DNA of 64,000 nt from Anaerolineales bacterium (GCA_034417075.1 DAOULU010000012.1:211342-275341); one strand, 5' to 3'. Counted from the stretch's first letter, positions 18,656 to 39,088 are shown. Translations and numbers: made by a program. Notes: a model not told the origin generated them from the letters alone.

Positions 18656-19687
18656 TTAGGCGGCTGACTTTTTCGATTTCTCTTTGCCAGTATCCCCGGT
18701 GAAATTCGTGGGGACGATTCCATTCTTCTGTGCTTCGTCAAACGATATCAATGTGGGTGGCGTTTTTTCTTCCGTTTCGTCGGAAGATTTATCCTGGCTA
18801 TCTTCCTGCAGCATCTCTTCCAATTCATCGGAAATCGAATTTCGAAGTTGGGCTAGGATTTCCGATTGATCTTCGGAAATATCCAGGTCCATCATGATAT
18901 CGAGCAATTCTGCAATCGTCCGTTTCGCGCTGAACCATACCATCCCGATCGGTGTTTGGGCACGATCACGTTCAAACACGATGACCAGGAATAGATCCTT
19001 ACATAAGCTTGTGGAGAAAGTATTCCATTTCGAACCTTCGTTATACATTAGGTTAAAAACACAATCTTCCGACATATTGCGAGCCAGCTCGAAAAACGAA
19101 GCGTGTCCTGCGCCTATCAGTGCGGTGGTTATGGGGACATCGAATTCTTCAACGTATCCCGAATAAGTTATCGGTTTTCCCTCTGCGTTCGCCAGGATGA
19201 TGCAGTGTGCGGATATTTCTTGTCGAAGAGCATCCAACTTGAGGGTGATATTTTGTATTTTTTCCTTGATATCACACGCGATAGGCTCACGAGTTTCACT
19301 GCTCGTGCTGAGAACTTCTCGGGTGGCGTCGATCAAATCATCGATATCAATTGGCTTCGCCATGTAGCGGGCGACGTTGAGCTGTTTTGCTTTGGCCTTT
19401 ACGTCTTCGGAACCATATGCGGTCATGAGAATCATGCGGGTGTTGATCCCGTTGGAACGGATTTTTTCCATCAACTCGAGGCCGTCGACTTGCGGCATAC
19501 GTAGATCGGTGATCACCAGCTCATACACGATCTTCTGTATTTTATTCCAAGCAATGGAACCGTTATCGGCCGTGTCGACAACGTATCCCTCACCAAGGCC
19601 TTGAAGGGTATCAGCGATCGCGGTAGTAAACGTCAATTCGTCATCGACCACCAATACACGAGGAGGTTGTTCCTGGCGTTCACCCAT
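18656..19687 (-). CDS. response-regulator receiver domain fused to a Roadblock/LC7-like domain
   Basis: REC motifs VLVVDDE, ELVITDLRMPQVDG, MTAYG, AKP. The C-terminal half (CIILANAEGKPITYSG...LFLVIVFERD) resembles the Roadblock/LC7 (MglB-like) fold. ggagag RBS before the ATG. Confidence 0.8.
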   Translation of the reverse strand: MGERQEQPPRVLVVDDELTFTTAIADTLQGLGEGYVVDTADNGSIAWNKIQKIVYELVITDLRMPQVDGLELMEKIRSNGINTRMILMTAYGSEDVKAKAKQLNVARYMAKPIDIDDLIDATREVLSTSSETREPIACDIKEKIQNITLKLDALRQEISAHCIILANAEGKPITYSGYVEEFDVPITTALIGAGHASFFELARNMSEDCVFNLMYNEGSKWNTFSTSLCKDLFLVIVFERDRAQTPIGMVWFSAKRTIAELLDIMMDLDISEDQSEILAQLRNSISDELEEMLQEDSQDKSSDETEEKTPPTLISFDEAQKNGIVPTNFTGDTGKEKSKKSAA

Positions 19688-19846: not shown

Positions 19847-22800
19847 TTAAGCGTTGAGGATTTTCTGAATAGAGTTGGCAAGCGTTTTTTTATCGACAGG
19901 TTTTTGTACCCACGAAACGAGGTTGCTTTCGAGTAGCTCTCGGGTTCCTTCGTCCAACGGATAGCCGGTAATCAGTAGCATTTTAATCCCGGGTTGCTTT
20001 TCATTCAAAGTGCGGAAAAGTGTAGGTCCACTCAATCCCGGCATTATCACGTCACTCAGTACGAGGTCGACTTTTTCGCCTCCATTATCGAAATGGCGGA
20101 GGGCTTCTATCCCATCCGAGGCGGTGATTACGCGATAATTCAATGACTGCAGCACGCGGCTTAATGCATCGCGGACTTCAGATTCATCTTCGACCAGCAG
20201 AAGTGTCTCTAGATTTCCTTCCAGCGCATCGAAATCGTCGTCATCGAGAATGGTGGAAGCCTGTGTGTTCAACACGGGCAGGTAGATTGTGAAAGTCGTT
20301 CCCTTGCCCTTGCTGCTTTCAACGTCGATATATCCATCGTGCTGCTTTATGATGCCGTAGACTTGCGAAAGACCAAGCCCCGTACCCTGGCCTACGGGTT
20401 TGGTCGTAAAGAAGGGCTCGAAGATATGTGGTAGGACATCGGATGGAATGCCAAATCCGGTGTCGATAATCCGCAGACGCAACCAGGCCCCGGGTTTCAT
20501 GTCGCGATAGGGAGGTCTCTTGTTTGGATGTACAGTGAGTGTCGAAATATCAAAGGTCAACTGTCCGCCATCACTCATGGCATCTCTGGCGTTGATTGCC
20601 AGGTTGATCAGTACTTGTTGAAGTCGACCGGGGTCAGCACGAATCACGACCTGTTCTTCGCAAGGTTTATGTACGACGTGGATGTTTTCAGGAAGCATGC
20701 GATTGATGAGGGTGATGAAATCCTCGAAGAAGTCACGCAGGTTGACTTCAACGGGAGACATGACTCCTTTACGGCTGAAATCCAGAAATTGTTGTGTTAC
20801 AGAAGTGGCTCGTTGTGAAAGGCTGAGGATGGTCTTTACCCATTCCTGAGCTTCTGAACGTAGCGTGGGCTCTTCAAGCAGCATTTCACTATACAGCGTG
20901 ACTGGAACCAGGATGTTGTTGAAGTCGTGCGCGATTCCTGCAGCCATTTGACCCACCGCAGCAAGGCGTTCTTGCAGGTAGACTCGTCTTTGGGTTTCAC
21001 GTTCCTGGGTAACGTCTCGAATGACCAGAACCCATCCCTCAGATTGGACTCCGGTATCCAATGGGCGAGCGATAACTTCGTAAGATTGATTCTCTATTCC
21101 GATTTGTTGCCAAGGGTCCTGACTGGGAGCGTTGAAAATTTGCCGTATGGACACATCCCCGAGATGAGTCAGCGTATCGCCCAACTGGGCATTAGCCAAA
21201 GTCTTTAAATCATTCTTGCCCGCAGGATTGGCGAGTATAACATTTCCAGTCTGGTCGAGGAGTAACACACCCTCCGGTACGGTGTCGATTATTTGCTGAA
21301 CTTGACGCATTTGTTCTTGGATTCGTTCCAACAACCGGAGGCGTTGTGCAGTTGTACCCAATTGCTGGCCGACGGCTTCGGCTAGTGCGATCTCTTCGTC
21401 CGACCAGATACGTGGTACTTGGGCAGTGAGACTGATGCCACCGATGCGGCGATTTTCCTCCGCCACGATCTGTACGGTCAGCGAGGAACGCATGCCGTGT
21501 TCGATGAGAAGATCGGTGAAGGGTAACGGGGGATTCTCCGAATCGGTTGTGGCTTGCCAATCCTCAACAGCCAGTGTTCCAGGAATCTCCAACCCCTTGC
21601 TGGCTCGTATAGCTTCGGTGATACGATCTTTTATTTTGGAAGACATTCCCCGCGTCGCTACATATGGATGAATCCAGATACTTCCTACCTCCAGGCTTAG
21701 GGCATGAAGGGAGCGTTCTAAAGCAATTTCGAGAAGTTGGGGGAGGTCAGTCGCTGCATTTGCAGCGGCGATGATCGAGTTTAGCGCTTCAAAGTGTGTC
21801 GCACGGCGCGTTATTTCTTTTTCCGCTTTTTTACGCTTGTCGATGTCTCTGGAGATTCCCAACGTACCAGCTACGTTGCCATCTTTGTCGAGTAGAGGTA
21901 GTTTAGTCGTCGATACCCAAGCTTCACGACCGTCGGGCCAAATTTCCCGCTCTTCCTTGTCTGAAATTGTATCGCCGGTCTCGATCAATCGCTTCTCGTC
22001 CTCAAAAGCAACCTTTGCATGGTCCTCAGCAAAGAAATCGAAGTCCGTCTTTCCGATCGCCTGGTCTGGATCGGACAACTCGAATTTTTCTGCGAGTGCC
22101 GCGTTGATCTTGATGAACCGACTGTCTAGGTCTTTGAAGTAAATATAATTTGGGGAGTAGTCCATGAGAGATCGCAGGAGATGCTGTTCCCGAGATAGTG
22201 CTTCCTTTGTTTGATTTCTTTCCACGATCTCTTGCTGTAACTCTGTCGTTCTCTCTACGACTTGTTTTTCGATCGCAGCGTAGGCATTCCTGAGTGCATC
22301 TTCTTCTTTTTCCCGTTCCTGACGCAGCAGAGTCTTCTCGACGGCGCTGCTGATTTGCTCTTGTAGGATGTTGCACAATCGCCCTTCCGGGGGATCGACC
22401 TCGAACACGATTATCCCCAATTGCTTCTTTCCACGGAACAGCGTTTCGATGACAAATGAATATCGGCTTTTTCTTGAAGCGAGTTTTACATGGTTCAGAA
22501 GTTCGGTCGTGGGAAACGAATTTCGTTCCTTGAGTTTTGTACGTCCTTTTTCATCGAACGCCAAGATCATCTGCGAAACATCCATATTAACTCGCGGTTC
22601 GCCATCCGCCGGATCCCAGAACCGCTCGTATAGAGAAATGTAACAGCTTCTTATGCCTAATCGAGGCAATCCGAGATATAGGGCATTCGCCAATTCATTA
22701 AGATCGAAAGCAGTGTACAACGCATTGGTGATTTCAAGGAATTTCACGTACTGACGTTCGGTGATCGTCTTCTGATTAAGTCCGGCTTGTTGAAGTTTTT

Positions 22801-24103
22801 CGCTGATCAGCACACGGGCTTGTCCACAGATATCTTCCGCACGCACTAAGATCGACTCGTCGCTGTATTGCGTACGTGCATAGCGGCGCAGCGAGGACAC
22901 TGCGTTTTGCCAAATCCCGATTTCACCATCTCCTGCGATTGTGTCATTAATGAACTGTTCAAGGGTTTGTAGGAACTCTCCTGTCGAACCATTCCTGATC
23001 TCGGCGAGGAAAGTATTAAATAATGCTTCTACGCTTTCCTCCCCCAAATCTTCGATGGCAACATTTACGATGTTGACGAGCTCCAATACCGTCGTATTGG
23101 GTTGTGCGTTCGATTTACTCGAGAACTCCATCTCGGGATGATGCATCGTAGCTGCACGTTTTATTGCCGAGGATGAACACCCGCACGATTCGCGGATGAA
23201 GAGCGTAGTTGGAACGATCACGCGCTCGGGCACTTCCACGCCCTGCAGCATTTGAAGTGCCATGTTCACCGCTTTTCGGCACTGTTCTCGAAAAGGTTGA
23301 TGCACCGTCGTGAGAGGAGGAAGCGTGGCTTTGGTTGTAATTCGATCGTCGAAGCCCGCCACTGCGATGTCATTCGGGACGGATTGCCCATATTCTTTCA
23401 AGGTCCAAGTTACACCAAGCGCTATACTGTCGTTCGCGCCTACTACGGCTTCGAAGTGTTCATTGCGTTGATCGATGAACAAACGAATTGCATTTCCGCC
23501 TGTATATTCGTCCCATGCGCCTGGTGGTGAGATTAGATTGGGATTGATTTCAATCCCCGATTCTCGTAGGACGTCCTTATAAGCTTTAAACCTTTCTTCC
23601 GCACCAATCTGCGATTCCGGACCTCGAATGAAAGCGATGCGACGGAAACCATGATCTTGAACCAGATGAACGATGAGGTTGCGCATACCGAGGTAATCAT
23701 CGGTTGTCACGGTCGGTATTCCTGACACTTCATGACCAATGTTGATCATGGGTTTTGATTCGAACCTTCTACAGAATTCGATGAATGGTTCTTGTGAGAC
23801 GCAGTTGCTGATTGAAGCGTCCCATATTACCAGGGCGTCGATGATTGCGTCGTTCCCTATTGTGAAGATATCGCTGCCATCGGATCGATTTTCGCTCGAA
23901 TCACACAATTCAGCCCCTGCGATACAGATGAGGTTTGCGTTTTGTTCCTGAGCGGCTTTCGCGACAGCGCGCCACATCACCAAGCGATGCGGCTCAGCTA
24001 CGCATGACGTCAGGAAACCTATGGTTGGCCGTTTTCGAAATGCTTTCACCAAGTCATTCCCTAGTTTCTTAAGTTCCTTTATCTCCGCCGCTGACATCGC
24101 CAC
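19847..24103 (-). CDS. soluble hybrid sensor histidine kinase: LacI-type binding-protein-fold domain, GAF-like, PAS, GAF, PAS, HisKA, HATPase, REC
   Basis: 1418 aa with no TM or signal peptide. N-terminus resembles LacI/GalR ligand-binding cores (AVAGFDD...PPLTTVHQP...[10 protein letters not shown]). H-box [13 protein letters not shown]-box [19 protein letters not shown] / [13 protein letters not shown]. Confidence 0.9.
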
Positions 24104-24183
24104 TCCACATGAGTGGTCGTTTTGTCAGTTGTTAACGAATGACCGATGTCCCTTGGCAGGAGGACGTCTATCGTGGGGCTGCC

Positions 24184-27100
24184 TCATTCATTGTCTAGCG
24201 CATTACGAATCGCATCAGCCAAGAGATCCACGTCGTAAGGTTTGTGAATCACGGCGGCCACTCCAGCTTGCCGCAGATGATCCAGGTCCTCGGCGATGAT
24301 GTGGCCCGTAACCGCGACCGCCTTGATGGTAGACCCCAATTGACGCAATTCACGCAGTAATGCAGCTCCTCCGATCTCTGGCATAACGACGTCAGTAAAG
24401 AGCAGGTCGATATCACCGTTTGTTTTATAGACTTCCAATGCCTCCTTGCCGTTCGATGCAGATAGAACGTGGTACCCCAAGTCTTCCAGTATCTGCTGGC
24501 CGACTTCACGCATCTTTTCATTGTCCTCCACCAGTAGGATGGTTTCCCCGTTTCCCTGCGGGATGGATGAAAACACACCGTCCTGCGAAGACAGATGTTT
24601 TTCAGGTTTACACAGTGGTAGGTATACATGAAATGTCGTGCCCTTTCCCACCTCTGTATCCACATTGACTTGACCGTTATGCTGTTTCACGATTCCATAT
24701 ACTTGCGACAACCCCAGTCCGGTTCCCTTGCCGGTGTCTTTGGTCGTGAAGAAAGGTTCGAATATGTGCGGCAGCACTTCTGGTGGAATGCCGGTACCGG
24801 TGTCGGAAACGGAAATGCGGAGCCAGTTTCCCGGAACCATGCCCGCAGTCGGTGGATCTTCGTGTTCTTCGAGATGCAAACTGGACAACTTGATCCGCAG
24901 TGTCCCGCCCTTCGGCATTGCGTCGCGAGCGTTGACCACTAAATTCATAAGGACTTGCTGAATTCGAGTGGGGTCGGAATCGACGATGTACTCATCCGGA
25001 TCGATCTCCAGGGTAAGGGAGATATTTTCCGGGATCGTGCGCTTCAGAACTCGCACCGTTTCCTTTATGAACGGCCCAAGATCCACCAAACTCGTCTCGA
25101 TCGGCGATCGGCGACTGAAATCCAAGATTTGCTGCACCAGGTTGGCAGCATGCTTCGATTCTTTGAGGATCGTCTCGAGTGACTTTTTGATATCTTCGTT
25201 CACTTCATGTTTACGTAGCGGTCGTTGCGCGTAAAGCATGATCGTGGTTAACATGTTGTTGAAGTCGTGTGCAATCCCACCGGCCAACTGTCCAACCGCT
25301 GCGAGTCTTTCTTGCTGGTGGATGCGTTTTTGAGTCTCACGTTCTTTGGTCACATCTCGCAAGACCAGGACCCAACCCTTGGATTGCGTTCCTTTTTCTA
25401 ATTCCTTCGCGATGGCTTCAAAGAACCGCTCTTTGAATATAATCCGGCACCAAGGATTCTTCGGATCACGATCCAATACATCTGTAAGAGGGCGATTGCC
25501 GAGTTGTGAGAGGGTATCGCCAAATCCCATTTCAGCAAGAAGTTCGAGGTCCCGTTCTCCTGTCGGATTGGCAAGCAGGATCAATCCATCTTTATCGAGC
25601 AGGATAACTCCTTCGGGGACCGTGTCGATTATTTGCTGTACCTGGCGCATTTGTTCCTGAATCCGTTCCAACAGGCGCAGACGTTCTGTTGCAGTCCCTA
25701 ATTGTTGGCCGACGGCAATCACGAGATCGATTTCCTCTTTCGGCCACGAGCGTGGCTGCATGGCCGAGAGAATCAGCCCGCCGATGAAGATTCCATTCTC
25801 GGCCATGATGGGCGCAACGATTGAGGCGCCAACACCCTGCCGAGTCATGATCGAGGAAATCGGTGCGAGTGATTCGTTCTCGGATTCATGTGACCAATCA
25901 TCGATGGCGATCGGATTCGTGATCCGTGTTCCTTCGTGGGTCAGAATGTCGCGTGTGACGCTGTCGACAATGCCCTCCGGAATGCCGCGCGTGACGACGT
26001 TGGGTGGAATCCAGATACTTCCGATCTCCAAGTCGATGGCTCGGAGCGTATGGTCAAGGGCGGTTTCCAGTAATTGATCGAGATCCGCTTCTGTTGCAGC
26101 GGCGGATATGATCGTGTTCAACGCTTCTACCTGAACTGAACGGCGACGGATCTTCTCATCCGCTTCCCTTAGTTCCTGAAAAGCATTTGCTCCTTGGATT
26201 GCGGCGCTGATTTGGGTGGACAAAGTCTCGCACATTTCTGTATCGAGGTTATGCATCCCAAGAACCAAATACCCAAAGAGTTCGTCGCGGAAGTAGAGCG
26301 AATTGACCACGAGTTCATGTCTACGGTCGTTTAGTAGGAATCCTTCTGGAAATAGATTAACGGCCGGGAATGATTGTCTGACGTCATCGGCCGTGTCTAT
26401 TCTTCCTTCTATGTTGTAGGACAGCATTAGCCTGGCGTTTTTTCTGCTTTGATTTGGGCCATCAAAGAGGCATATAACACAACTATGAATTCCGATGCTT
26501 GGAAAATGATCCCAAATCGTTTCCATTAAGTTCGTCATGTCGTACGTGGTCAGCAATGCTTGGTTCGTATAACGTAATGGCTCAGCGATGTGCTCCTCTT
26601 GCAGTCTCAAATAGGAAGTGGATAGGGCTCCAATTTTACCCAGCAGTAAATTTGCTCGCCGCCAGAGCTCCGCCGTCCGTCTGGAGGATTCAATATCCTT
26701 GACGAGTGGCATAGTGAGCTGATTGAGAGTCGACATCGCATATTGCCACCGATATGCGTCGGTTCCATCAATCAAGCCGCGACGTAATATCTTCTCCAGC
26801 AATATTATGAATTCATCGGGATCGCTTTGATTGGTAAGCGCGTTGAAAAAGATGTCAACCAATTCCGATGTGTTTCTCGTGATCAAGTCTTCTTGTGAAT
26901 AAGACGGGTTATATGCTTCGACGACCTTTTGGACAACATAATCTCGCTGTGCGGTATGATCGTCAGACATCAGAAGCACTTTATCTTCTTGTAGAGAGCC
27001 TTCGGATTTCGGTTCCGGCTCACATGCACAACTCAGGCGCCGGACCAAAGTTGTTGGCATCAATTCACAATCCGGCACTTCTCCGCCTTCCAAAATCGTT

Positions 27101-27972
27101 ATGAGGAATTCCACAGCGCGCTTTCCGATCTCGTACATCGGTTGTCGTACCGTGGTTAGTGGTGGATTGGAAATATTGGCATCCATGACATCGTCATAAC
27201 CGATGATGGCGACGTCATCCGGAACATCAATACCACGAGTTTGAATGGCTTCCATGGCAGCCAGCGCCATGGTATCGTTTGCGCCAACCAACGCGTCGAA
27301 TTCTACCTTGCGCTCATCCAGAAGGACGCGTACCGCTTTCGTTCCCGAATCTCGGAAAAAATCTCCTTCAATGACCAGACTGGGGTCCAATGGAATGCCA
27401 TACTTCTCGAGTGTGTCGAGATAGGCCTGGTATCGCCGATGTGCTTCGGCACTTCCATCAGGACCACGAATGAAAGCGATTTTTCTCCGATTATGTTTCT
27501 GGATAAGATGGGCGATTGCATCTTGCATGCCTGTGAGGTCGTCGGCTAATATGCTGGGAACTCCTGCGACTTCTAATCCAATGCTGACAGTTGGAAGTGG
27601 AAGGTATCGACGGCAGAATGTGGTCAACTCTTCAAAGTTAACACATTGACCGATCACACCTGCTCCGATGATCAGACCATCAACTTGTTTCTCTGGAATT
27701 AATTCATAGATTTCGTTGCGTTGGTATTCGTAATTATCGAAATTCATCGTGGCATTCAAACAGCCACCGGTGTAACAAATCACACTCGCATCATGGTTGC
27801 GCGCAGCTTCGATGATTCCTCGCCATACTTCGAATTGGTATCCGCTCGTGCCGAGAATTCGATCGACCAGAAACGCAATTGTTGGGCGCGTGCTAAAATT
27901 TTGGGAATAGTGCGTGTACTTGCGATTTCCATTTGGTATAGGCATCGACACGCTTTCTACAGCAGGCTCCAC
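24184..27972 (-). CDS. soluble hybrid sensor histidine kinase paralog lacking the first PAS module
   Basis: 1262 aa with the same order of domains as its neighbours, but ~155 aa (coiled coil + PAS) are missing between the GAF-like module and the GAF domain. H-box [23 protein letters not shown] / [13 protein letters not shown]. Confidence 0.9.
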   Translation of the reverse strand: MEPAVESVSMPIPNGNRKYTHYSQNFSTRPTIAFLVDRILGTSGYQFEVWRGIIEAARNHDASVICYTGGCLNATMNFDNYEYQRNEIYELIPEKQVDGLIIGAGVIGQCVNFEELTTFCRRYLPLPTVSIGLEVAGVPSILADDLTGMQDAIAHLIQKHNRRKIAFIRGPDGSAEAHRRYQAYLDTLEKYGIPLDPSLVIEGDFFRDSGTKAVRVLLDERKVEFDALVGANDTMALAAMEAIQTRGIDVPDDVAIIGYDDVMDANISNPPLTTVRQPMYEIGKRAVEFLITILEGGEVPDCELMPTTLVRRLSCACEPEPKSEGSLQEDKVLLMSDDHTAQRDYVVQKVVEAYNPSYSQEDLITRNTSELVDIFFNALTNQSDPDEFIILLEKILRRGLIDGTDAYRWQYAMSTLNQLTMPLVKDIESSRRTAELWRRANLLLGKIGALSTSYLRLQEEHIAEPLRYTNQALLTTYDMTNLMETIWDHFPSIGIHSCVICLFDGPNQSRKNARLMLSYNIEGRIDTADDVRQSFPAVNLFPEGFLLNDRRHELVVNSLYFRDELFGYLVLGMHNLDTEMCETLSTQISAAIQGANAFQELREADEKIRRRSVQVEALNTIISAAATEADLDQLLETALDHTLRAIDLEIGSIWIPPNVVTRGIPEGIVDSVTRDILTHEGTRITNPIAIDDWSHESENESLAPISSIMTRQGVGASIVAPIMAENGIFIGGLILSAMQPRSWPKEEIDLVIAVGQQLGTATERLRLLERIQEQMRQVQQIIDTVPEGVILLDKDGLILLANPTGERDLELLAEMGFGDTLSQLGNRPLTDVLDRDPKNPWCRIIFKERFFEAIAKELEKGTQSKGWVLVLRDVTKERETQKRIHQQERLAAVGQLAGGIAHDFNNMLTTIMLYAQRPLRKHEVNEDIKKSLETILKESKHAANLVQQILDFSRRSPIETSLVDLGPFIKETVRVLKRTIPENISLTLEIDPDEYIVDSDPTRIQQVLMNLVVNARDAMPKGGTLRIKLSSLHLEEHEDPPTAGMVPGNWLRISVSDTGTGIPPEVLPHIFEPFFTTKDTGKGTGLGLSQVYGIVKQHNGQVNVDTEVGKGTTFHVYLPLCKPEKHLSSQDGVFSSIPQGNGETILLVEDNEKMREVGQQILEDLGYHVLSASNGKEALEVYKTNGDIDLLFTDVVMPEIGGAALLRELRQLGSTIKAVAVTGHIIAEDLDHLRQAGVAAVIHKPYDVDLLADAIRNALDNE

Positions 27973-28049
27973 TGGTCGTAATTGTTAGAGAAATCCTTTC
28001 GGTGATGTAGTCGCACGGAATGCGGACGGCCTATTTCTTGTTGCGATTA

Positions 28050-31000
28050 TCACTTACCGTCTAAGACCTTCCGAATTTCATCGGCCACTTCTTTCACTTC
28101 CAAAGGTTTGAATATGATCCCCGAAACGCCGTCATTTCGCAGTTCTTGAAGATCCTTGGCAAGCATATGTCCAGTTACTGCAATGGTTTTAACTGTGGAG
28201 CCCATATCACGCAGGGAGTGTAATAAAGCAACGCCGCCGACTTCCGGCATGACGACGTCGGTAAAAACGAGATCGAAATCTCCGTTCTGGCTGAAGAGAT
28301 CCAGAGCTTCACGACCATTTTTTGCAGCCACAACCTCATAGCCCAAGTCACGTAGCATTTCTTCGCTCACCTCTCGTACGTGTTGGCTGTCCTCGACGAG
28401 GAGGATGCGTTCGCCTGTGCCTTTGGGGATATCGATGTTGTCGGTGGGTAAAATTTCGAATTTTTCGGCTGACTGATGGATCGGAAGATAGACGAGGAAT
28501 TCAGTGCCTTCACCGACCGTGGAATCCACTTTAATGAAACCCTCGTGCTGTTTGACGATGCCCCAAACCTGAGACAAGCCCAATCCCGTTCCCTTGCCGG
28601 CGGCTTTCGTGGTGAAGAAAGGCTCGAAAATATGCGGCAAGATATCCTCGGGTATACCTGTTCCTGTGTCTTTAACGGACAGGCAGAACCACTTTCCTGG
28701 TGTTATGCCAGGAACTGGAACATCATCATCGCTATCTTCTTCATGAACGATCACGCTTGACACGCCGACTCGCAATACTCCACCTTCTGACATAGCGTCT
28801 CGCGCATTCACAACCAGGTTCATCAGGACCTGTTGAATGCGAGTCGGATCTGATTCGACGAGGTACTCATCTGGGTCGATCTCGATGTACAACGAGATGT
28901 TCTCGGGAATAGTTCGTTGTAGTACACGCACGGCTTCTTTCACGAACGGTCCAAGATCGATGGGATGTCGTTCGATCGGTGCGTGTCGGCTGAAATCGAG
29001 GATCTGTTGAACCAAATCTGCTGCCTTACGAGACTCGCTGAGGATCGTCTCGAGGGGTTTTTTCAGATCATTCGGCAGCTGTTGTTTGCGTAAGGGCATT
29101 TGAGCATAAAGCATGATTGTCGTAAGGAGGTTGTTGAAGTCGTGGGCTATTCCACCAGCGAGCTGGCCGACAGCTGCCAGGCGTTCCTGTTGTTGCACTT
29201 GGCGCTGTGTTTCACGTTCATGGGTCACATCTCGAATCACAACGACCCAATTTTTTGATGCACCAGGGGTATTGATGGGTTGTGCGATGATTTCAAAAAT
29301 TCGGTTGCTGGCATTGACCTCATGCCAGGGGACATCCGATTCTTCTTGAAGGATTTTAGAAATGGGATAACCACCGAGGTGGGAAATTTCAGTGCCGACG
29401 GATGTTTTCGCCAGTACATGTAAGTCTCGTGTCCCCGCGGGATTGGCTAGGATCACACGATTGTTCGAGTCAAGTAGTAGCACACCGTCTGGTACGGTGT
29501 CTGTGATTTGCTGCACTTGCTTCATTTGTTCATGGATCTGTTCCATAAGTCTAAGCCGTTCGGCTGCTATTCCTACTTGATAGCCAACCGCTTGCAAGAG
29601 AGTGGTTTCTTCTGTGGTCCACTCAAATGCATTGGGAGAAGCGATACATAGACCTCCGATGCGATTTCCTCCCTCGGTTTTTATCGGAACGGTGATCGAA
29701 GTCCGAACGTCATGTGGTTTGAGAATGGCCTCAAAGAAGCCATAACGCGGGTCTTCTTCCGCTACTTCTTGCCAATCATTGACAATGACGATTTCCGGCA
29801 GATTATTACTTTCAGGATCGTAATGGTAGTGTGGTGATTCATTCTCCGATGGTAACAATTCTCGGAAAACCGCGTGTGGATGGATCCAAATAAGACCCAT
29901 ATCCAAATCAAGTGCGTGGAGGGATAAATCCAAAGCAATTTTCAATAACTCTTGGAAATCGACTGCAGTTGAAGTCAAGCTGATAATCGTGTTGATCGCT
30001 TCTAGGTGGGCGGCGTGGCGTCGAAGTTCTTGCTCCGCTCGCTTGGATTCAGTAATGTCTCTGGAAATACCGAATGTGCCGGTGATTTTTCCCTTCTCAT
30101 CTCGTATAGGTAATTTGGTTGTCGAGACCCACGTTTCGTGTCCGTCCGGCCAGGTCTCTTTTTCTTCTTTCCCGATAATCGGTTCTCCAGTATCGAGCAA
30201 ACGCACTTCGTCTTTAAAAGCTTCCTGTGCATGTTCCTCGGTGTACAAATCAAATACGGTTAATCCCAGCATTTCGTCGGGAGATTCTTTCCCGTGTATC
30301 TTGGCACACACTGGATTGACCTTAATAAACCTACCCTCTTGGTCTTTAAAGTAGATGACATCCGTCGTTTGATCCATTAACAAGTGTAATAAGTATTGTT
30401 CCCGAGTTAATGCTTGTTGGGCCTGCTCACGGTCTACGATCTCGAATTCTAGCTCGATGGCTTTTTCGATAACCTGTTCCTCAGCTTCCGTGTAGGCTTG
30501 CTGCAGCAGTTCATGCTCTTGTTGTCGCGCTCGGAGTAGTAATGCGTAGTTGAGGGAACTGCTTATTTGTTCTTGCAGCATGTCACAGGCTCTTCCATCC
30601 GGTGGATATATTTCGAAAAGTACTACTCCGAGAGGTTCATCAGCGCTTTCGAGGGCTTTAACCACAAAAGAACTTATCTTCTTTCGGGAACCAATTTCTT
30701 TACGAGGAAGGATAGTCGCTGAAGGAGCAATCGCATCAGTTTCCAGCGCCAATCGACCGTTCTCATCGAACGCCAGTATCATCCTTAATAAACTTGGTTC
30801 CGTCTGCAAATCGTCTTCCTGCAGTGCATATGCACCTTCGTAGAGGGACAGATAGCAACTCCGAATTCCGAAACGAGGTAGATTTCGATGGAGGATCTCG
30901 AGTAAATCATCGAGTTCGTGCGCTGTCGACAAAGCTCTGGTAGTCTCACGCATATTCGCGTATTGTCGATCGTAGATCAACGATTGACGCGTTTCGATCT

Positions 31001-32315
31001 GTTGGACCGTCTCACCGATCAACACACGAGATTGATGGACGAGTTCCTCAATTCGTTCCGTTGTTGTTTTATCTTTAAATTGCAGGAGTGAAAAATGACG
31101 AAGTAAAGAAACCACTTTTTGCCATTCGTTGATTTCAGTCTCTACCGATACCGTCTCTTCGAAACATTGAGCGAGGTCCTTTAGGAAATTGCCGGAACCA
31201 TTATTTTCGATATCCGTAATGAAAGATTCGAATAGCCGCTTGCTCCAGTTTGTGATCGATCCTTCGACCGTAGAGTCAACGATTTGTGCGATCGCTTTAA
31301 TTCCATCTTCGGGATTCGTATTTGATGTATCGGACTCGACAGGATCGATAATCGTTTTTGTGATCGCACGTCCAACGGCAGATGATGTACAGCCGCATGA
31401 TTGACGGATGCATAGTTCTGTGGGGATATTGACGAGATCTGGGACAACGCCACCCTGCAATTTGGTTAGTACGATGTTAACTGCATGTCTGCACTGCTCT
31501 TTTAAATGTTGGCGGACTGTGGATAATGGTGGAGTAGCAGCTTTTGCAATTGCTTGGCCATCAAATCCAGCTATGGCTACATCACCAGGGACTTCTAGTC
31601 CCCGGTTTCTCAATGCCCACATCGCAGCGAGGGCAATCGAGTCGTTTACACTTACAATCGCGTCAAAATCTACATTTCGCTCATCGACGAATAGTCGTAC
31701 GGCATCTTCGCCTGTAGCTGCATCCCAACTACCTGGCTGCGAGAGTAGATCTAGGTCTAGTTGGATGTTGGATTCTGAAAGCGCATCTTTATATGCCTGG
31801 AATCTCGTTTCTGCTCCGATCTGTCCTTCAGGTCCCCGGATGAAAGCGATACGTCGATAGCCATGATCTACGATTAGATGACGTACCAAATTGTGCATGC
31901 CGACGTAGTTGTCGGAAAGGACCGTCGGGATGCCATCGACCTGCTGGCCGATGCTGACAATCGGTTTGGATATGAACTGGTGGCAAAATTCACGAAACGT
32001 GTTCTGTGGGACAGAAGTTCCAAGTCTTGCTCCATAGATTATGATGGCGTCGATGACATCTTCGCTCGCAGCTCGAAATAAGGAACCGATTGGATTGGTG
32101 TTCCCATGCGATTCATCGATTAAATCGACCGCGATCGTCACAACATTGGCGTTTCGCTCATGCGCAGCTTCAACAACCGCAGTCCACATGGCCAAACCGA
32201 AATGGTCTTCCATTGCGGCAGTGAGGAAGGCAATGGTAGGCAGCGAGATTGAAGATTGGTTTTTGTCGCCATTGTTAGCTGGACGGTCTTGTTTCATATT
32301 TGGTGCCACTAACAT
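28050..32315 (-). CDS. soluble hybrid sensor histidine kinase paralog: LacI-type domain, GAF-like, PAS, GAF, PAS, HisKA, HATPase, REC
   Basis: 1421 aa, co-linear with 19847..24103. H-box [23 protein letters not shown] / [13 protein letters not shown]. Confidence 0.9.
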
Positions 32316-32337: not shown

Positions 32338-32787
32338 CTATTCCTCATCCAGTGCTTGTCGAACTGCGACGGCTAAGATATCAACGTCGTATGGTTTGTG
32401 AATGATCGTTTTAACGCCGGCTTCCTTTAATTGATCCAAATCCTCAGCCAATATGTGGCCCGTCACTGCAAGCGCTTTCACCTGCGACCCAGATTGGCGT
32501 ATCTTTTGAAGCATAGCTGCGCCGCCAACTTCAGGCATCACGACGTCAGTAAATATCAGATCGATATCCTCTGACTGGTTAAAAACTTTAAGTGCTTCTA
32601 GACCGTTCGATGCACAAAGAACTTGATATCCTAAATCCTCTAAAATCTGCATTCCGACTTCACGCATCAAGTCATTGTCCTCCACAAACAAGATGGTTTC
32701 CCCTTTTCCTTGTGGGACGCCTCTAATTGTTTCTTCTTCTTGAAGATTGAAATCAGGCTTTTCCATAGAAAGTGGAGGTTCACTCAT
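32338..32787 (-). CDS. stand-alone receiver (CheY-like) domain protein, homologous to the C-terminus of the adjacent hybrid kinases
   Basis: [21 protein letters not shown] and HKPYDVDILAVAVRQALDEE closely match the REC of 24184..27972. ATG 32787 overlaps the stop of the upstream transposase-like ORF by 8 nt; the ORF track starts at TTG 32829. Confidence 0.75.
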   Translation of the reverse strand: MSEPPLSMEKPDFNLQEEETIRGVPQGKGETILFVEDNDLMREVGMQILEDLGYQVLCASNGLEALKVFNQSEDIDLIFTDVVMPEVGGAAMLQKIRQSGSQVKALAVTGHILAEDLDQLKEAGVKTIIHKPYDVDILAVAVRQALDEE

Positions 32788-34018
32788 TAAAAAATCCTTT
32801 TCCCTTGTAAACCCACCAGGCGTGAGCAATCATTGATAAAGTAAAATGACGATGCCAGCTGTTCCAGCGACGGACTCCATAGTCGTCCATCTTAAAAAAT
32901 GTGCAAGCTTCTGCTACCATTTGTTTTAAACTTCCAAGTGCATTGGTAATCGTTGCGAGATTTGTCAATGACGAGTCTTCTGTGGCGTTCGATATAAAGT
33001 ACGCAGTTTCACAGCGTTGACTTACCGATCGGCGCGCTAGCAGCCACACTTCATGGGAGGTGTCCCCATCAGGGTGTTCAACGACGCGATCTGATGCCCA
33101 ATCGAAGACACAAAGTTCATCGTCATTGGTGCCGCCAATCAAGCGTTTCCATTTTTGCTCGGGCCAAGAAGAGACGATTTTGAAAATTGTGGGTTCGACA
33201 GATCCATTTTCCCCTTTGTCCGATATTTGCGAATCGTCATCGGGATCGGTCTGCCGGTAAGTAGAATCGGTTTTTCGGCCGGGAAGAATGTAATTCATAC
33301 CTGTCGCCTGGATGACGATGCGCAAATTCGGATCGTCGCAAAAAGGTTCCGCACCAACAATCCACTGCATCGGTGTTCCAATGGCATGAACCGACTGAAG
33401 CATATCCAGGGTGAGATCGGATTTGCTTCGATATTCAATGTTCTCGGGAATTTTCGCTTCTCGTCTTCGCTTGTGATCTTCAGCCCATTCCACGGGGAGA
33501 TAGAGACGACGGTCGAGGAATGTTGAACCTTTGGCGGAGGTGTAGCCTAAGAATAAGCAGACCTGGCAATTCTGTTCTCTGTTGATTTTGTGGTTGAATT
33601 GTGGCTGCACACCGACGGTCTTTGCCCCTTTTTTCGGAAAATATGTAACTCCGATGAGACAAATGCCATCCTCGTCCCCTAATTCTGATACGATGAATTC
33701 CTGAAGACGAGAATGAACGGCTTCATCGTCCCATTGCGCACCAAAAAACAATCTTTGGGCGGCTTTGGATGATTTATTATTGTTGGAAGTTAATGGATTT
33801 CTTCCGCGAGACTTGCGCTCCGCATTTTGGAGTAGAGACTGTACATAATGCAGTGCTTGTTGTCGCGTTTCGGTCCGCGCGAAATATTCATCGAATTGAT
33901 CGTGGAAAAATTCTTCGAACTCGGACCATTCACACGATCGGTCGACCGTTGAAAGAGAATTGATACCAACTTCTGAAATACTTCCGCCTCTTCCGTTCAT
34001 CACCCAAATACTTTTCAC
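32780..34018 (-). CDS. IS701-family (DDE) transposase-like protein, possibly catalytically degenerate
   Basis: Co-linear with the IS701 consensus as I recall it: FARTETRQQALHYVQSLL..ERK, FPKKGAKTVGVQ, NCQVCLFLGY, LYLPVEWAEDHKRRREAKIP, WNSWHRHFTLSMIAHAW. No terminal inverted repeats found. Only 27-45 nt separate it from the upstream gene. Confidence 0.7.
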   Translation of the reverse strand: MKSIWVMNGRGGSISEVGINSLSTVDRSCEWSEFEEFFHDQFDEYFARTETRQQALHYVQSLLQNAERKSRGRNPLTSNNNKSSKAAQRLFFGAQWDDEAVHSRLQEFIVSELGDEDGICLIGVTYFPKKGAKTVGVQPQFNHKINREQNCQVCLFLGYTSAKGSTFLDRRLYLPVEWAEDHKRRREAKIPENIEYRSKSDLTLDMLQSVHAIGTPMQWIVGAEPFCDDPNLRIVIQATGMNYILPGRKTDSTYRQTDPDDDSQISDKGENGSVEPTIFKIVSSWPEQKWKRLIGGTNDDELCVFDWASDRVVEHPDGDTSHEVWLLARRSVSQRCETAYFISNATEDSSLTNLATITNALGSLKQMVAEACTFFKMDDYGVRRWNSWHRHFTLSMIAHAWWVYKGKGFFNE

Positions 34019-34045: not shown

Positions 34046-34438
34046 TCAAGATAGGAATTCAACGATTTGTTTAATGGCCTGATTCGTCATGCGTCGGTAG
34101 CTGTGGTCTGGTGGTGCAATAACCGCAAGAATCATTTCCTCGCCGCCGGCTTTTAAATATCGACAAACCAAACGCATCCGATTGGAATCAAGAATGGAAA
34201 ATTCATCAATTTCTGCGAGCGGAAATTGATCACGTACCTCTTTGCTCATTCTTTTAAGCATCGCAATCATGGCTGCGGCTTTATCAGTATCGAAATTCGC
34301 AGGTACGGTTGCGATCGGCAACCCTTCACCGCTGGCAAGAACGGCGGTCTCAAATTGACCTTGTTCGTGCAAGGTGAGCAGCAATTCGTCAAGCGTTACT
34401 GGTTGGTACGTGGCCGAATCAACTTGTTGATAATTCAT
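34046..34438 (-). CDS. Roadblock/LC7 (MglB-like) domain protein
   Basis: 130 aa, single-domain size, with FETAVLASGEGLPIATV...MRLVCRYLKAGGEEMILAVIAP, the typical Roadblock pattern. Confidence 0.8.
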   Translation of the reverse strand: MNYQQVDSATYQPVTLDELLLTLHEQGQFETAVLASGEGLPIATVPANFDTDKAAAMIAMLKRMSKEVRDQFPLAEIDEFSILDSNRMRLVCRYLKAGGEEMILAVIAPPDHSYRRMTNQAIKQIVEFLS

Positions 34439-34471
34439 TGTAACCTTCCTAAAGCCACAAATTATCGAATG

Positions 34472-34963
34472 CTAATTTTCGCCAAACAGACTCTCAATTT
34501 CCGTGGTCAATGCTTGCCCAAATTCATCATCGACAATGCGTCCCTGTTCCTTTTGTACGCGTTCGAACTCCGCAGCAAGCGGGAGCAAGTTCTTCACGGC
34601 TTGGCCTGTGAAAAGGCGTACAAGACCGATCTGGACTTTTGTGCTGAATAAGACGACGAGCAAAAAACTACCGGCAACGTTCGAAAGATAGATATTCTGA
34701 TCGTCCCCTTCGTGGAACATGAGTTTGAAGGGATTTTCCTCACCGATCTGGCGGGCAATCTCTGCCGTGGCAGCCATGTTGCTGGCGGTTAAAGCAGAAA
34801 GGATCACTGGATCAAAGGTCTTCGTAAACCCTTGTTGGCAGATCAGCTGTCCGCTGATGTCTGCCAATAAGACGCAGCAGGCTTGGGTTTTCTCCAGCAA
34901 TTGCGATAAGATCTTGATGATCTTCGTCATCAGAGCTGGGGGTATGACTACTTTATCTGACAT
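34472..34963 (-). CDS. Roadblock/LC7 (MglB-like) domain protein
   Basis: ATG 34963 is preceded by a gggagg RBS. ACCVLLADISGQLICQQG...FLLVVLFSTKVQIGLV fits the Roadblock pattern. The longer ORF to 35086 is unlikely. Confidence 0.8.
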   Translation of the reverse strand: MSDKVVIPPALMTKIIKILSQLLEKTQACCVLLADISGQLICQQGFTKTFDPVILSALTASNMAATAEIARQIGEENPFKLMFHEGDDQNIYLSNVAGSFLLVVLFSTKVQIGLVRLFTGQAVKNLLPLAAEFERVQKEQGRIVDDEFGQALTTEIESLFGEN

Positions 34964-35144
34964 TGGGTACCTCCCGAGATTGGTTGGCGTTGACTTTCGA
35001 GTTCGAAGCTCTGCAGGTTTCGTTGGAAGTCCCGCCGAATTTCCGATGGAGCGACAGAATTTGGATGTGTCCAAAGGTCGTCCCATCGTCTAGTTTGTGA
35101 CGGGTATAGTTTAAATTCCCAGGAAACATGCTCGTAACACATGG

Positions 35145-35927
35145 TTATGTTCTTCTCCGCAATCGTTCGATTGCAGCTTTCAGGCTGACTCTCATTCGCT
35201 CAATCGATCGAGCAAGATCCTCCATCTCGTCGCCAGTGTCGGCAACAATGGGGCTGTCTAAATCGCCTCGACTGATGCTCTCGGCTGCCGAGCTGAGGTA
35301 TAAAGCTGCACTCGTCAAGCCACGACTGATCGTCAGGGCGCTCAAAATGCCGATAATGATGCCAATGGCAACGACGATAATTGCGATTCTCATGATGTTG
35401 GTGATCTGACTCCCAATAACGTTGAGAAGTTGGTTCTGCTCGACTTCAACCACAGAGAGTAATTCATCCATCGCAGGTCTTACAATTTGAATGAAGAAAA
35501 TATCGGCTTCATCGATGTCAAGTAATGTGCTGGTAATGTCATTCGGATTAGATTCATAGGCCGATTGTGCATTCTCAAGATATTGGTGGTAGATCGCGAC
35601 CGCTTGTTCGATGTCCGATAAATAATCTGAATATTGAGCGCTTGAATTTTCGACTATGTTTGTCCACTGTTGGTTGTATTCTTCTCGAAGATCAGCGAGC
35701 GCTGTTTCTTCTCCGGTTGCAATATGATGACTCAATGATGTCCGTTCCATCAGCAAGAGTCTCATACCTCTTTCGACAAATTCAATGGTTTGCAGCGCTG
35801 TGATTGAATCTCGCGTTGCGTTGGTTAGCGTGTTTAATCCGAGGAAGACCCCAACCCCGATCAAGACTAGCAAGACCAGAGGGATTCCGAGACCAATTCC
35901 CAATTTTCTCCCGATGGTCAATCTCAT
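35145..35927 (-). CDS. membrane protein: two TM helices, helical extracytoplasmic domain and HAMP domain, with no output domain
   Basis: TM1 [25 protein letters not shown]2 [27 protein letters not shown]-like [50 protein letters not shown]. The ORF ends ~15 aa later. Confidence 0.8.
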
Positions 35928-36012
35928 CTTTATTTAGATCTCCTTAATCCTTGTCGTAGAACGGACTCTTACCCTTATACCCGATATGGCAGACCGCTGC
36001 GTTTCAACTGTG

Positions 36013-36801
36013 TTAAATACTTCGCAACAAATCTAGCATGATCTGTTGAAAACGCATGCGTTGATCTGAGTCCTCAATTTCCGTGCTCACCTGTTCCACC
36101 AGGTCAGCAACTTTGTTTCGCGGAAAGGATTCTCTGGTTTCATTCAAGTCGGCGATTTTTTCATCAATTATCACCGGCCCCATTGGGCCGATCACTTCAA
36201 TGAATTCGTCATTAAGTCGATCGAAAAACTCGTTGTCGATGGCAGTTATGGGCAACGACTTCGATTCTTCGACGATCTCTAGCAGTCCCGTCTTTACAAG
36301 CCCGGCAAGGACGTTTGCGGCTTTAAAGTCTTCCCATCCCAAGGATTCGGCGATGTCGTCGATTGTGCGTACTCCGTTTACCTGCGCCAAGACCTTCCAT
36401 TCGTCCGGTTCCAAGTTGATCGCCCCCGTCGTTCCTTGGGCAAGGTTGAAAACCGCCTCCATCGATGGAATGACGTCCTTAATTTCGGACCATCCCTTGA
36501 TTCGTTTTTCCCCTTCACTGAGGAGCACCTCTGTTGACGTCGAAATGGACTCCTCTGGTGGTTCAATACCGCTCACGAAATTGAAGTTCCCATGCAGCCA
36601 TGATAGTAGGAAATAGAAAGCTTCTTCTCCCATTTGTGTCCCGGTGATGACATGAACGATGTTGCCATTCCGTAAGAAAATCTCACCGGTATTGCTCCCA
36701 TCCGATAAATCAAGTTTTCCCGTTTGACGCCCTGATTTTAATAATTGAATGATATTCGGGAGTGACAATTGGTTTAGATCACCCCGTAGAGCTTCTGCCA
36801 T
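36013..36801 (-). CDS. PATAN (DUF4388) domain protein
   Basis: N-terminus LRGDLNQLSLPNIIQLLKSGRQTGKLDLSDGSNTGEIFLRNGNIVHVITGTQMGEEAFYFLLSWLHGNFNF is the DUF4388/PATAN signature. ATG 36801 overlaps the upstream stop (TGATG). Confidence 0.8.
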   Translation of the reverse strand: MAEALRGDLNQLSLPNIIQLLKSGRQTGKLDLSDGSNTGEIFLRNGNIVHVITGTQMGEEAFYFLLSWLHGNFNFVSGIEPPEESISTSTEVLLSEGEKRIKGWSEIKDVIPSMEAVFNLAQGTTGAINLEPDEWKVLAQVNGVRTIDDIAESLGWEDFKAANVLAGLVKTGLLEIVEESKSLPITAIDNEFFDRLNDEFIEVIGPMGPVIIDEKIADLNETRESFPRNKVADLVEQVSTEIEDSDQRMRFQQIMLDLLRSI

Positions 36802-37238
36802 CACACGACTCCCTCATTAATGGTTATGTACAAACGCCAGGATATTTCATCGACATCGTCTTCCTGCACGATCCGGATGACCTGTTCTTTTGGTGCAATA
36901 TTGCCTAGTTGTGTTTCGAATTCCGGTCCGGATAAGTTTACATTCAATGTCAGTCGAAGAAGGGCGATGTCCACATTTGATTTGCAGATTACGACGAGCA
37001 AAGCCTGGTTGAGGTCGCGAATCAACACCCGGATTCCTTCATACGTCAGATCAAGTTCTTGAATCCCGTTCTGTATCCTGGCAGCGATTGCTTGCGTCAC
37101 TTGACGGCTGATTCCACGCAAAACCGCGATATTCAGGTTCCCGGGAACAGCGTTCACGATCACGTTGCCGTGATTGTCACAGATGAACGATCCGAGTACA
37201 CCGTCCAGTGCGTTGATTTCAGCGAGTACTTGGTCCAT
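36801..37238 (-). CDS. Roadblock/LC7 (MglB-like) domain protein
   Basis: 145 aa with LDGVLGSFICDNHGNVIVNAV...ALLVVICKSNVDIALLRL, the Roadblock pattern. Begins 9 nt after the upstream gene. Confidence 0.8.
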   Translation of the reverse strand: MDQVLAEINALDGVLGSFICDNHGNVIVNAVPGNLNIAVLRGISRQVTQAIAARIQNGIQELDLTYEGIRVLIRDLNQALLVVICKSNVDIALLRLTLNVNLSGPEFETQLGNIAPKEQVIRIVQEDDVDEISWRLYITINEGVV

Positions 37239-37247
37239 GTTGATCTC

Positions 37248-38258
37248 TTAGTCGGCCGTGAAACCAAGGATGAATGGACCTAAGCCCAGGCGCTTGATTG
37301 TGTCGTCGTATTTATCCTTTACCGCCTTCATTTCGGTCTGGATTCTATGTTCCAGATCCGCGGCTGCCGGTTGGGAGGCCAGCTGCTCGATTGTCGTGCT
37401 CAGGCAGTCGCTGAGACCTTTACTCAAATTCTTGGCATCGCCGCTGTATTGGATTATGCCGTCCTTGTATTGGAACAAACCGGCGAAGGGATCCAGAAAT
37501 GGATATTCGTTGGCCTTCTCGATCATGACGTATTTGAATGTCTCGAGGAACTGGCCTGCGCCGATTGTAGAGTCCGACATTTTCTCGATCGTACCAATCG
37601 TCTCACCCCACACGGCAAGCAAGCGTGGGAGATCGAAACCAGCTTCGATCTCTTCGCTCTCGGCAAACGAAGCTTCAATGGCCGCGTTGTAAACGTTGAA
37701 GTCCGCTCCCAAAGCTGAAGCATTCTCGACGATGTGAGGCAGAATCGCATCTCCGGATATCGCCTCATCCTGCATCGAGAGGATGCTCTCGACGACTTCA
37801 CCGTTTTCGAGGAAGACAATCGCGACGCCATCACCGCCTGTCATCCTAACCTCGATGTAGCCGGTGTGCCCCTCATTCTTCAGTTTCGAGATGAGTTTTT
37901 CGAGGCTGGTGAAGTCTGTGTTGAGATCCTTGTAGCGTACCTCGCTTCTCACGGTACTGGCGAGCATGGTTACCTTCTTTGGTGAGAGGCCATACACGCT
38001 GATGGAACCGTCTTTTTGGTTGACTTTTGTCGTAATGCTGCCGACGGCATCGTGGCTGGTCTTTCGTTTCCCGCTCACCTCTTCGATGGCATTGATGATG
38101 TTCCCATTGTCCATGAAAAGTGCGGCTTCGTAATCCCAAAAACTGATGTGAACGTATCCGGTGAAGCTGTTGGACTTGAGATCCAGCAATAATTTACCGA
38201 AACTTGTAAAAGAGGTATTCAGATTCTCGTAGATTGGTTTTCCCTTTGGTAATAACAT
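37248..38258 (-). CDS. hypothetical protein with two divergent PATAN/DUF4388-like repeats and a helical C-terminal region
   Basis: Repeats FGKLLLDLKSNSFTGYVHISFWDYEAALFMDNGNIINAIEE and LEKLISKLKNEGHTGYIEVRMTGGDGVAIVFLENGEVVESI. ATG 38258 has an aggag RBS. Domain call is tentative. Confidence 0.6.
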   Translation of the reverse strand: MLLPKGKPIYENLNTSFTSFGKLLLDLKSNSFTGYVHISFWDYEAALFMDNGNIINAIEEVSGKRKTSHDAVGSITTKVNQKDGSISVYGLSPKKVTMLASTVRSEVRYKDLNTDFTSLEKLISKLKNEGHTGYIEVRMTGGDGVAIVFLENGEVVESILSMQDEAISGDAILPHIVENASALGADFNVYNAAIEASFAESEEIEAGFDLPRLLAVWGETIGTIEKMSDSTIGAGQFLETFKYVMIEKANEYPFLDPFAGLFQYKDGIIQYSGDAKNLSKGLSDCLSTTIEQLASQPAAADLEHRIQTEMKAVKDKYDDTIKRLGLGPFILGFTAD

Positions 38259-38351
38259 TGTGTTTCTCCTATGAGAGCTAATCTTTGTCGAAACGGTTGC
38301 CTTCATTCGACGATTGCTCGAATAGTAGCATCCGGATTTTTCCTCAACGCA

Positions 38352-39062: not shown

Positions 39063-39088
39063 AAGCGATTGCCTTTGTTTCCTATGAT

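Follow-up and report, generated by a model that had tools for sequence, protein, structure and literature searches.

An old array of three soluble hybrid histidine kinases with LacI-type sensor cores in an Anaerolineales genome

What do three large hybrid histidine kinases encoded side by side sense, where do their phosphoryl groups go, and how did the three genes come to lie together? These questions are raised by positions 19847-32315 of a 64,000-nucleotide stretch of DNA from an Anaerolineales bacterium (GCA_034417075.1, DAOULU010000012.1:211342-275341), which is referred to here as the window. The genome has 3.97 Mb in 45 contigs and is 93.8% complete. Three minus-strand genes, named A, B and C here, encode soluble hybrid histidine kinases that carry a LacI/GalR-type ligand-binding core without a helix-turn-helix (HTH). 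The array is old and is conserved across the genus. We lean towards the view that the three proteins are functional cytoplasmic metabolite sensors, in which phosphoryl groups would flow to receivers only and the output would reach an MglA-like GTPase switch.

Gene A (19847..24103) is an open reading frame (ORF) of 1418 amino acids, with His1059 as phospho-acceptor and Asp1351 in the receiver. Gene B (24184..27972) has 1262 codons (His902, Asp1194), and gene C (28050..32315) has 1421 (His1058, Asp1353). The gaps are 80 nt between A and B and 77 nt between B and C. The database start of A lies two codons inward (1416 amino acids, ATG at 24097), and that of B nine codons inward (1253 amino acids). 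The domain order is a LacI/GalR-type core, a helical bundle, a divergent GAF-like fold, (PAS)-GAF-PAS, HisKA, HATPase and a receiver. GAF, PAS_8 (a short PAS), HisKA, HATPase_c and Response_reg are common to all three proteins in Pfam, the last three scoring above their cut-offs, and PAS_4 is present in A and C only. About 156 residues, with a coiled coil and the PAS_4 module, are missing from B. The transmitter and receiver of A (19868..20956, minus strand) comprise HisKA at residues 1050-1112, HATPase_c at 1157-1277 and the receiver at 1302-1412. The H box AHDFNN, NARDAM and a longer stretch that begins with DTGx (18 further letters) can be read from the translations, as can the D/D/T/K residues of the receiver. 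The H, N, G1, F and G2 boxes and the receiver Asp, Thr and Lys are intact in all three kinases. No DNA-binding domain (HTH_18/AraC or any other HTH family) was found in A, B or C in the Pfam scan. A Kyte–Doolittle scan with 19-residue windows found no stretch that reaches a typical transmembrane mean; the sole borderline window (mean 1.68) sits in the GAF core of B. An earlier reading of the window, made without database searches (the sequence-only reading), had described three adjacent, co-linear genes of these lengths, 77-80 nt apart and free of transmembrane segments, with PAS, GAF, HisKA, HATPase and receiver modules in this order. The ORFs agree with it exactly, and the Pfam and hydrophobicity scans bear it out, with PAS_4 restricted to A and C.

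By lineage, the N-terminal domain is specifically a LacI/GalR repressor core. Residues ~26-310 of each protein match Peripla_BP_3 and Peripla_BP_1 (E 1e-27 to 4e-31), with 97-109 bits against a gathering score of 26.5 for the former and 51-69 bits against 22.2 for the latter. The core of A spans residues 26-307 (23183..24028, minus strand; Peripla_BP_3 E 2.6e-30), and its equivalents lie at 27028-27885 in B and 31395-32237 in C. The best sequence match in the Protein Data Bank (PDB) was 9nt3 (phmmer, E 5e-35), and the solved relatives are LacI-family cores that include CelR, AscG, RbsR, LacI, CcpA and PurR. We searched with an AlphaFold model of residues 1-640 of A (predicted local distance difference test score, pLDDT, 82.7). 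The top 50 Foldseek matches in the PDB were all LacI-family cores, and the best superpositions gave TM-scores of 0.81-0.86 and E-values down to 1e-18. The Pfam scan found no HTH_LacI or other HTH family, the binding core begins at residue ~26, and there is no hinge helix. The proposal of a LacI/GalR-like domain without its HTH is thus upheld by Pfam, by the PDB sequence match and by Foldseek, and the N-terminal domains match the periplasmic-binding-protein fold both in sequence and in their predicted two-lobed architecture.

To compare the ligand pocket, E. coli LacI was aligned with 39 members of the sensor family. In LacI, residues D149, R197, N246 and D274 contact the inducer in the cleft, and R197, N246 and D274 bind sugar hydroxyls. 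The equivalent of R197 is kept in all 39 members, that of D274 in 33/39 and that of N246 in 28/39; the equivalents of W220 and Q291 are also retained. The positions of the N-subdomain half of the pocket vary across the family and differ among A, B and C. At the end of the core lies a C-x-C motif in the context R-x-S-C-G-C (Cys307 and Cys309 of A, 23177..23185, minus strand; 27022-27030 in B and 31389-31397 in C), which is invariant in 39/39 members. Two further cysteines are conserved, namely Cys60 (34/39) and Cys487 (31/39). LacI repressors have neither the motif nor these two cysteines. The conserved cysteines may form a metal or redox site.

Residues ~310-640 of A, B and C match no Pfam model, and a PDB sequence search with residues 310-610 returned chance-level matches only. 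In the AlphaFold model of residues 330-640 of A (pLDDT 90), a bundle of five helices is followed by an alpha/beta domain with five strands and a helix of ~70 residues. The bundle (residues 335-464) and the alpha/beta domain (468-570) are encoded at 22394..23101, and the long coiled-coil signalling helix (571-640; continuous over 571-639 in the model) is encoded at 22184..22393 and runs into PAS_4, all on the minus strand. The conserved RSCYISLYE region, for which a divergent GAF-like module had been proposed, is thus modelled as a helix bundle and an alpha/beta domain. The best Foldseek matches to residues 468-570 are all GAF domains, but weak ones (E 2e-4 to 1e-2, TM-score ~0.5, root-mean-square deviation 6-7 Å), and Pfam GAF does not match these residues. 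The label is reasonable but not proven. The helical bundle had no match of its own in the fold search.

Residues 1-600 act as one module, in which the LacI core, the R-x-S-C-G-C motif, the helical bundle and the GAF-like domain are co-linear over ~96%. Hundreds of metagenomic homologs cover 92-100% of these residues at 32-40% identity, and their source names, where given, are Anaerolineales, Anaerolineae (metagenome-assembled genomes) or Chloroflexota. The Pfam-less middle part gives about 1,500 clusters, mostly from Chloroflexota metagenomes (1466 at 50% identity; 786 at E≤1e-10), and nearly always starts at protein residue ~330-370, that is, behind a binding core. Within the phylum the module is patchy (14 of 301 genomes in an even sample). 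It is joined to many outputs: histidine kinase (HK), HK-receiver and HK-receiver-AraC chains, GAF arrays, STAS, PP2C (SpoIIE), methyl-accepting chemotaxis protein signalling, GGDEF, HD-GYP and sigma-54 activator domains. A further output, HK-receiver with a histidine phosphotransfer (Hpt) domain, was seen once, in a single chain of the distant member P0216. The congeneric genome G005 holds a fourth module-bearing protein, 33% identical, with the layout LacI core-HK-receiver-AraC (gene 8235-11816 of G005:C13:32000-50000). It divergently adjoins genes for an ATP-binding cassette sugar importer and for glycoside hydrolases of families GH4, GH88 and GH28, a pectin-type locus. A search of the genome under study with protein A found no counterpart of this protein; A, B and C were the only module matches. 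Literature searches found no paper or experimental study on the module. The LacI-core composite sensor module thus appears, from these sequence comparisons, to be a large, unstudied family.

Are A, B and C recent copies of each other? The sequence-only reading had suggested fairly recent duplication or gene conversion, on the basis of nucleotide similarity between ~21290-21340 and ~25620-25690. Both are ruled out by saturated silent sites and by a longest identical nucleotide run between paralogs of 17 nt. At that very place, a stretch of 26 amino acids is identical in A and B, and 15 of its 25 degenerate codons differ. Identity at third codon positions is 0.2-0.45 along the whole length of the paralogs, and where the residues agree, the codons agree as well in a fraction of 0.37-0.40, for which codon usage predicts 0.33-0.35. 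No conversion tract was found between the three genes. The paralogs are 28-54% identical to each other, and the orthologs of A in five congeners are 72-85% identical. A, B and C were all found in 5/5 other species of the genus, and the order C-B-A is kept wherever the contigs allow it to be followed, including the three congeners for which the region was fetched (G002, G003 and G004). Comparison of orthologs gives ratios of nonsynonymous to synonymous substitution rates of 0.02-0.21 across all domains of the three proteins (0.03-0.21 in A), so all three genes have been maintained under purifying selection. In G001 and G005 the contigs break inside gene B, whose N- and C-terminal halves fall on separate contig ends, suggesting that this paralog array is hard to assemble.

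A separate observation concerns gene C and its upstream neighbors. At ~29000-34000 and ~35000-36000, identity to the DNA of the close congeners G002 and G004 falls from ~0.84-0.90 to ~0.65-0.77, as low as that to the more distant G003. The first tract covers the sensor half of C, a free receiver gene and a DDE_5 gene, and has one boundary near the H box of C; the second lies over a HAMP gene. The synonymous divergence (dS) of the N-terminal half of C is ~2, compared with ~0.6 for A and B. This suggests that homologous recombination brought in these tracts from a more distant lineage, in place of the resident sequence.

The segments of the three proteins do not share one history. A and C are the closest pair in the sensor and in PAS_4; from the H box to the end, the identity of B and C is 0.6-0.8, against 0.3-0.5 for pairs with A. 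In a sensor tree that includes 30 further family members, A has C as its sister (Shimodaira–Hasegawa-like approximate likelihood ratio support 100), and the sensor of B groups with proteins of other architectures; it is 37-40% identical to many outsiders and 28-31% to A and C. A forced A+B+C sensor clade was rejected by the approximately unbiased (AU) test (p=0.0005). In the tree of the dimerization and histidine phosphotransfer (DHp) and catalytic (CA) domains, B and C are sisters (100/99), and the transmitter of A groups with other hybrid kinases: one of these, on contig C18 of the same genome, is 49% identical to it, compared with 44% for B or C. The forced A+B+C clade was here rejected marginally (AU p=0.036). 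The GAF-PAS segment gave no resolved grouping and was left out of the ancestry argument. Simple triplication is ruled out by these segment trees and AU tests. Of the tandem triplication in the sequence-only reading, the three adjacent, co-linear paralogs stand, and a single common history does not, since sensors and transmitters have different sister relations. Likewise, the expectation that the three are each other's closest relatives holds for the sensors of A and C and the transmitters of B and C, and fails for the sensor of B and the transmitter of A. Because the sensor and transmitter trees disagree, the array was built or reshuffled by old domain-level exchanges rather than by three clean copies.

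Where could the phosphoryl group go after the fused receivers? Pfam found no Hpt domain in A, B, C or anywhere in the window, in line with the earlier reading, and genome-wide its only Hpt matches are two P1-type domains of one CheA-like protein. This 983-residue protein (contig C21:67076-70024, minus strand) has the two P1 domains, HATPase_c and a C-terminal receiver in an FrzE/ChpA-like architecture. A genome search with the ChpT-type model (PF10090) gave weak cross-hits inside true kinases only. A scan of all ORFs of at least 80 amino acids for H-x-x-K-G-type motifs yielded nothing convincing beyond the two CheA P1 domains. A 145-residue protein at 36801-37238 (minus strand) has no Pfam match, and its N-terminus reads as Roadblock/LC7-type; it was considered as an Hpt candidate and rejected, as the sequence looks Roadblock-like and not Hpt-like. 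About seven kinases of the genome carry a C-terminal receiver and share the same lack, which makes it a property of the genome and not of this locus. The genome encodes 79 receiver domains, many of them orphans.

A receiver gene lies just upstream of C. Its stand-alone product (32338..32829, minus strand; Pfam receiver, 149-163 residues) is 70% identical to the fused receiver of B, 55% to that of C and 34% to that of A. It nests with the receivers of B in a tree, and its alpha-1 helix is almost that of B. It occupies the same place in three congeners. The free receiver is a paralogous copy of the fused receiver of B, and it likely serves as an acceptor in trans. Its origin as the recently severed end of a fourth kinase is unlikely, as both the receiver and the transposase-like gene upstream of it are in place in the three congeners; an old truncation of a fourth kinase is conceivable. 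In two-component systems, the choice of partner is governed by DHp and receiver surfaces. B and C have nearly the same DHp helix 1, and that of A differs. Because of this resemblance and that of receiver alpha-1, B and C may share the free receiver as a partner and A may be insulated from B and C. The sequence-only reading had proposed that the fused receivers may serve as sinks and that the kinases phosphorylate free receivers directly; such routing is plausible, and the B-like free receiver is the one candidate that the sequence indirectly favors.

The array is embedded in a larger gene set. Between 40759 and 18656, every gene is on the minus strand. The upstream part (34046..40759; Pfam) has genes for a receiver-Roadblock protein and an MglA-like GTPase, three for PATAN (DUF4388) proteins, one for a HAMP protein and two for Roadblock proteins. 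After it come a DDE_5 homolog, the free receiver gene, the array in the order C-B-A and a second receiver-Roadblock gene. The last gene (18656..19687) encodes a Pfam receiver and a Roadblock-like C-terminal part, and its product is a full-length paralog of the receiver-Roadblock protein at 39758-40759 (31% over residues 22-326, E 3e-43). Two of the MglB/Roadblock-like proteins of the operon are thus fused to receivers. Throughout its 22 kb, the operon has the same gene order in G002, G003 and G004; this order is kept with short gaps on one strand in four species that are ~70-85% identical in DNA. A terminator-like hairpin (18608-18586, minus strand; 10 pairs, 6 of them G-C, with a T run) lies 48 nt past the stop codon of the last gene; it is the best hairpin of the region, in a scan that as a whole was not above chance. 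No DNA-binding regulator was found in the array or operon. The DDE_5 transposase homolog (32780-34018, minus strand), whose end overlaps the start of the receiver gene, is found at the same place in the three congeners, with 70-71% protein identity over 407/412 residues. It looks like a retained, possibly domesticated gene and not like a fresh insertion. Links of MglA-family GTPases to two-component proteins are described for Frz/RomR, for the conservon kinase CvnA and in PATAN neighborhoods (PMC4316618).

With the locus laid out in this way, a route from ligand to output can be proposed, in which we infer the class of ligand, the paths of phosphotransfer and the connection with the GTPase. 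Each kinase would sense an intracellular small molecule, for which a sugar-like metabolite is the most likely candidate, and the three probably respond to different ligands. Binding would take place in the cleft of the LacI-type Venus-flytrap core, and closure of the cleft would start the signal. This would pass through the family-specific helical bundle, the GAF-like domain and the long coiled coil to the PAS/GAF modules and on to HisKA/HATPase, with autophosphorylation on His1059 (A), His902 (B) or His1058 (C). The phosphoryl group would then move to the kinase's own fused receiver (Asp1351, Asp1194 or Asp1353) and, for B and C, also to the free receiver at 32338-32829. It would probably go no further than receivers, since no Hpt is available. 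B and C would probably share partners, and A, with a different DHp and receiver, would probably be insulated. As there is no DNA-binding regulator and the array has a fixed place in an MglA/Roadblock/PATAN operon, the output would be the nucleotide or localization state of the MglA-like GTPase switch and not transcription. A bolder version, in which the three kinases replace a chemosensory (Frz-type) input and directly set a Ras-like MglA polarity switch by phosphorylating the receiver-MglB fusions as well as the free receiver, seems unlikely to us as a whole.

Several observations weigh against this proposal. The equivalent of LacI D149 is Gly or Ala, and the N-subdomain half of the pocket is not conserved; thus the ligand may be something other than a sugar. 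None of the genes next to A, B or C serves sugar use. The receivers of both receiver-Roadblock proteins are 22-31% identical to the fused receivers, and no sequence mark singles them out as partners. The kinase array and the MglA operon stand side by side only in this genus, and their linkage outside it was not seen in the limited flanks available for related kinases and receiver-Roadblock genes. The genome is 94% complete, and an Hpt is hard to detect. This last point bears on a classical multistep phosphorelay, in which the fused receivers would pass the phosphoryl group to a missed Hpt (in the unassembled 6%, or too divergent) and from there to a DNA-binding regulator elsewhere. Hpt domains are short four-helix bundles and escape detection easily, the assembly of 45 contigs is incomplete, P0216 shows that the module can be followed by an Hpt in one chain, and many of the 79 receiver domains are orphans. 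Against it, Pfam finds the CheA-like ORF only, the ChpT model finds only kinase cross-hits, the motif scan adds nothing convincing, and ~7 hybrid kinases share the lack. We consider such a relay improbable.

Could the LacI-like core be something other than a small-molecule sensor? It might be a dimerization or docking scaffold, as in CcpA, which binds HPr-Ser-P, or a redox or metal sensor that works through C-x-C, with the PAS and GAF domains as the real inputs. The variable N-subdomain pocket, the invariant R-x-S-C-G-C with Cys60 and Cys487, cysteines that LacI repressors lack, and the further PAS and GAF domains of each kinase would fit this. However, the family keeps equivalents of R197, N246 and D274, a module-bearing relative adjoins sugar import and glycoside hydrolase genes, and the module is joined to many outputs as one unit, as would fit a self-contained ligand sensor. 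This alternative appears very unlikely. It is also doubtful that the array is functionally separate from the MglA/Roadblock/PATAN genes, brought beside them by chance in the ancestor of the genus, with the regulators of the kinases elsewhere. The absence of the linkage from the flanks seen outside the genus agrees with a chance joining, and the transposase-like gene between the two gene sets hints at an old rearrangement. The identical order over 22 kb on a single strand with short gaps in four species speaks against it, as do the receiver genes without a kinase of their own that bracket the array and the position of the only strong terminator-like hairpin, after the last gene. We favor, with reservations, the reading of cytoplasmic metabolite sensors that act through receivers on the GTPase switch.

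If the bolder version, which we hold to be unlikely, is true, the intracellular carbohydrate status of a filamentous Chloroflexota bacterium would be coupled to cell polarity, motility or filament growth without a transcription factor or Hpt, and a metal or redox input could come in through the C-x-C motif of the module. The placement in an MglA operon suggests a route from metabolite sensing to a small-GTPase switch, of which there are few prokaryotic kinase examples. More broadly, a repressor-derived binding core fused to kinases for cytoplasmic sensing represents a large, unstudied branch of bacterial signaling. With three diverged, maintained copies side by side, the locus is a natural set for following the evolution of ligand and partner specificity. 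For annotation, two tempting readings, “recent triplication” and “CckA”, are corrected here.

The second of these arises from the transmitter. The best NCBIfam matches to the transmitter and receiver are CckA models (E 1e-98 to 1e-107, 330-358 bits), and the orthologs are named CckA by JGI. The whole-protein scores for NF046020 and NF046026 are 292-358 bits against a cut-off of 1000, the genome has no ChpT-type protein, and the sensor part is unrelated. CckA identity was rejected on these grounds, and the name is not justified. The VirA model of NCBIfam also matches, well below its cut-off. EspA and EspC of Myxococcus xanthus are reportedly soluble hybrid kinases with PAS/GAF inputs, of which several work together and in which phosphate moves within and between kinase-receiver proteins without an Hpt. 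Their inputs are said to be FHA and PAS domains instead of a LacI core, and their output to be control of MrpC turnover. Their NCBIfam models match the transmitters studied here at E 1e-55 to 1e-59, with ~200 bits against cut-offs of 1200-1400; because the scores are so far below the cut-offs, A, B and C are not orthologs of EspA or EspC.

On the sensor side, LacI/GalR repressors (LacI, RbsR, CcpA, PurR) have the same two-lobed core (PDB E 5e-35, TM-score 0.8-0.86). A, B and C differ from them in having no HTH or hinge helix, a kinase output, the invariant C-x-C and a different N-subdomain pocket. The hybrid two-component systems (HTCS) of Bacteroides, such as the fructose sensor BT1754, also combine a Venus-flytrap fold with HisKA, HATPase and a receiver in one chain. 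HTCS sensors are periplasmic, are flanked by transmembrane segments and end in an AraC DNA-binding domain. In contrast, A, B and C have no transmembrane segment and no DNA-binding domain, their core is of the LacI-repressor lineage, and a helical-bundle/GAF-like transducer is added. Sugar sensing is the likely input of the wider family, and relatives with the module do carry an HK-receiver-AraC output.

On the output side, kinase signaling is encoded together with, or acts on, an MglA-family GTPase and its Roadblock partner in the Frz/RomR system of Myxococcus and in actinobacterial conservons, which comprise CvnA, the Roadblock protein CvnB and the GTPase CvnD (PMC4316618). The kinase CvnA sits in the membrane, has a HAMP domain and lacks a receiver, and the Frz system is chemosensory and uses CheA, whereas the present locus has three soluble LacI-core hybrids. 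The likeness lies in the shared operon, whose products include the three kinases, an MglA-like GTPase, Roadblock proteins and receiver-Roadblock fusions.

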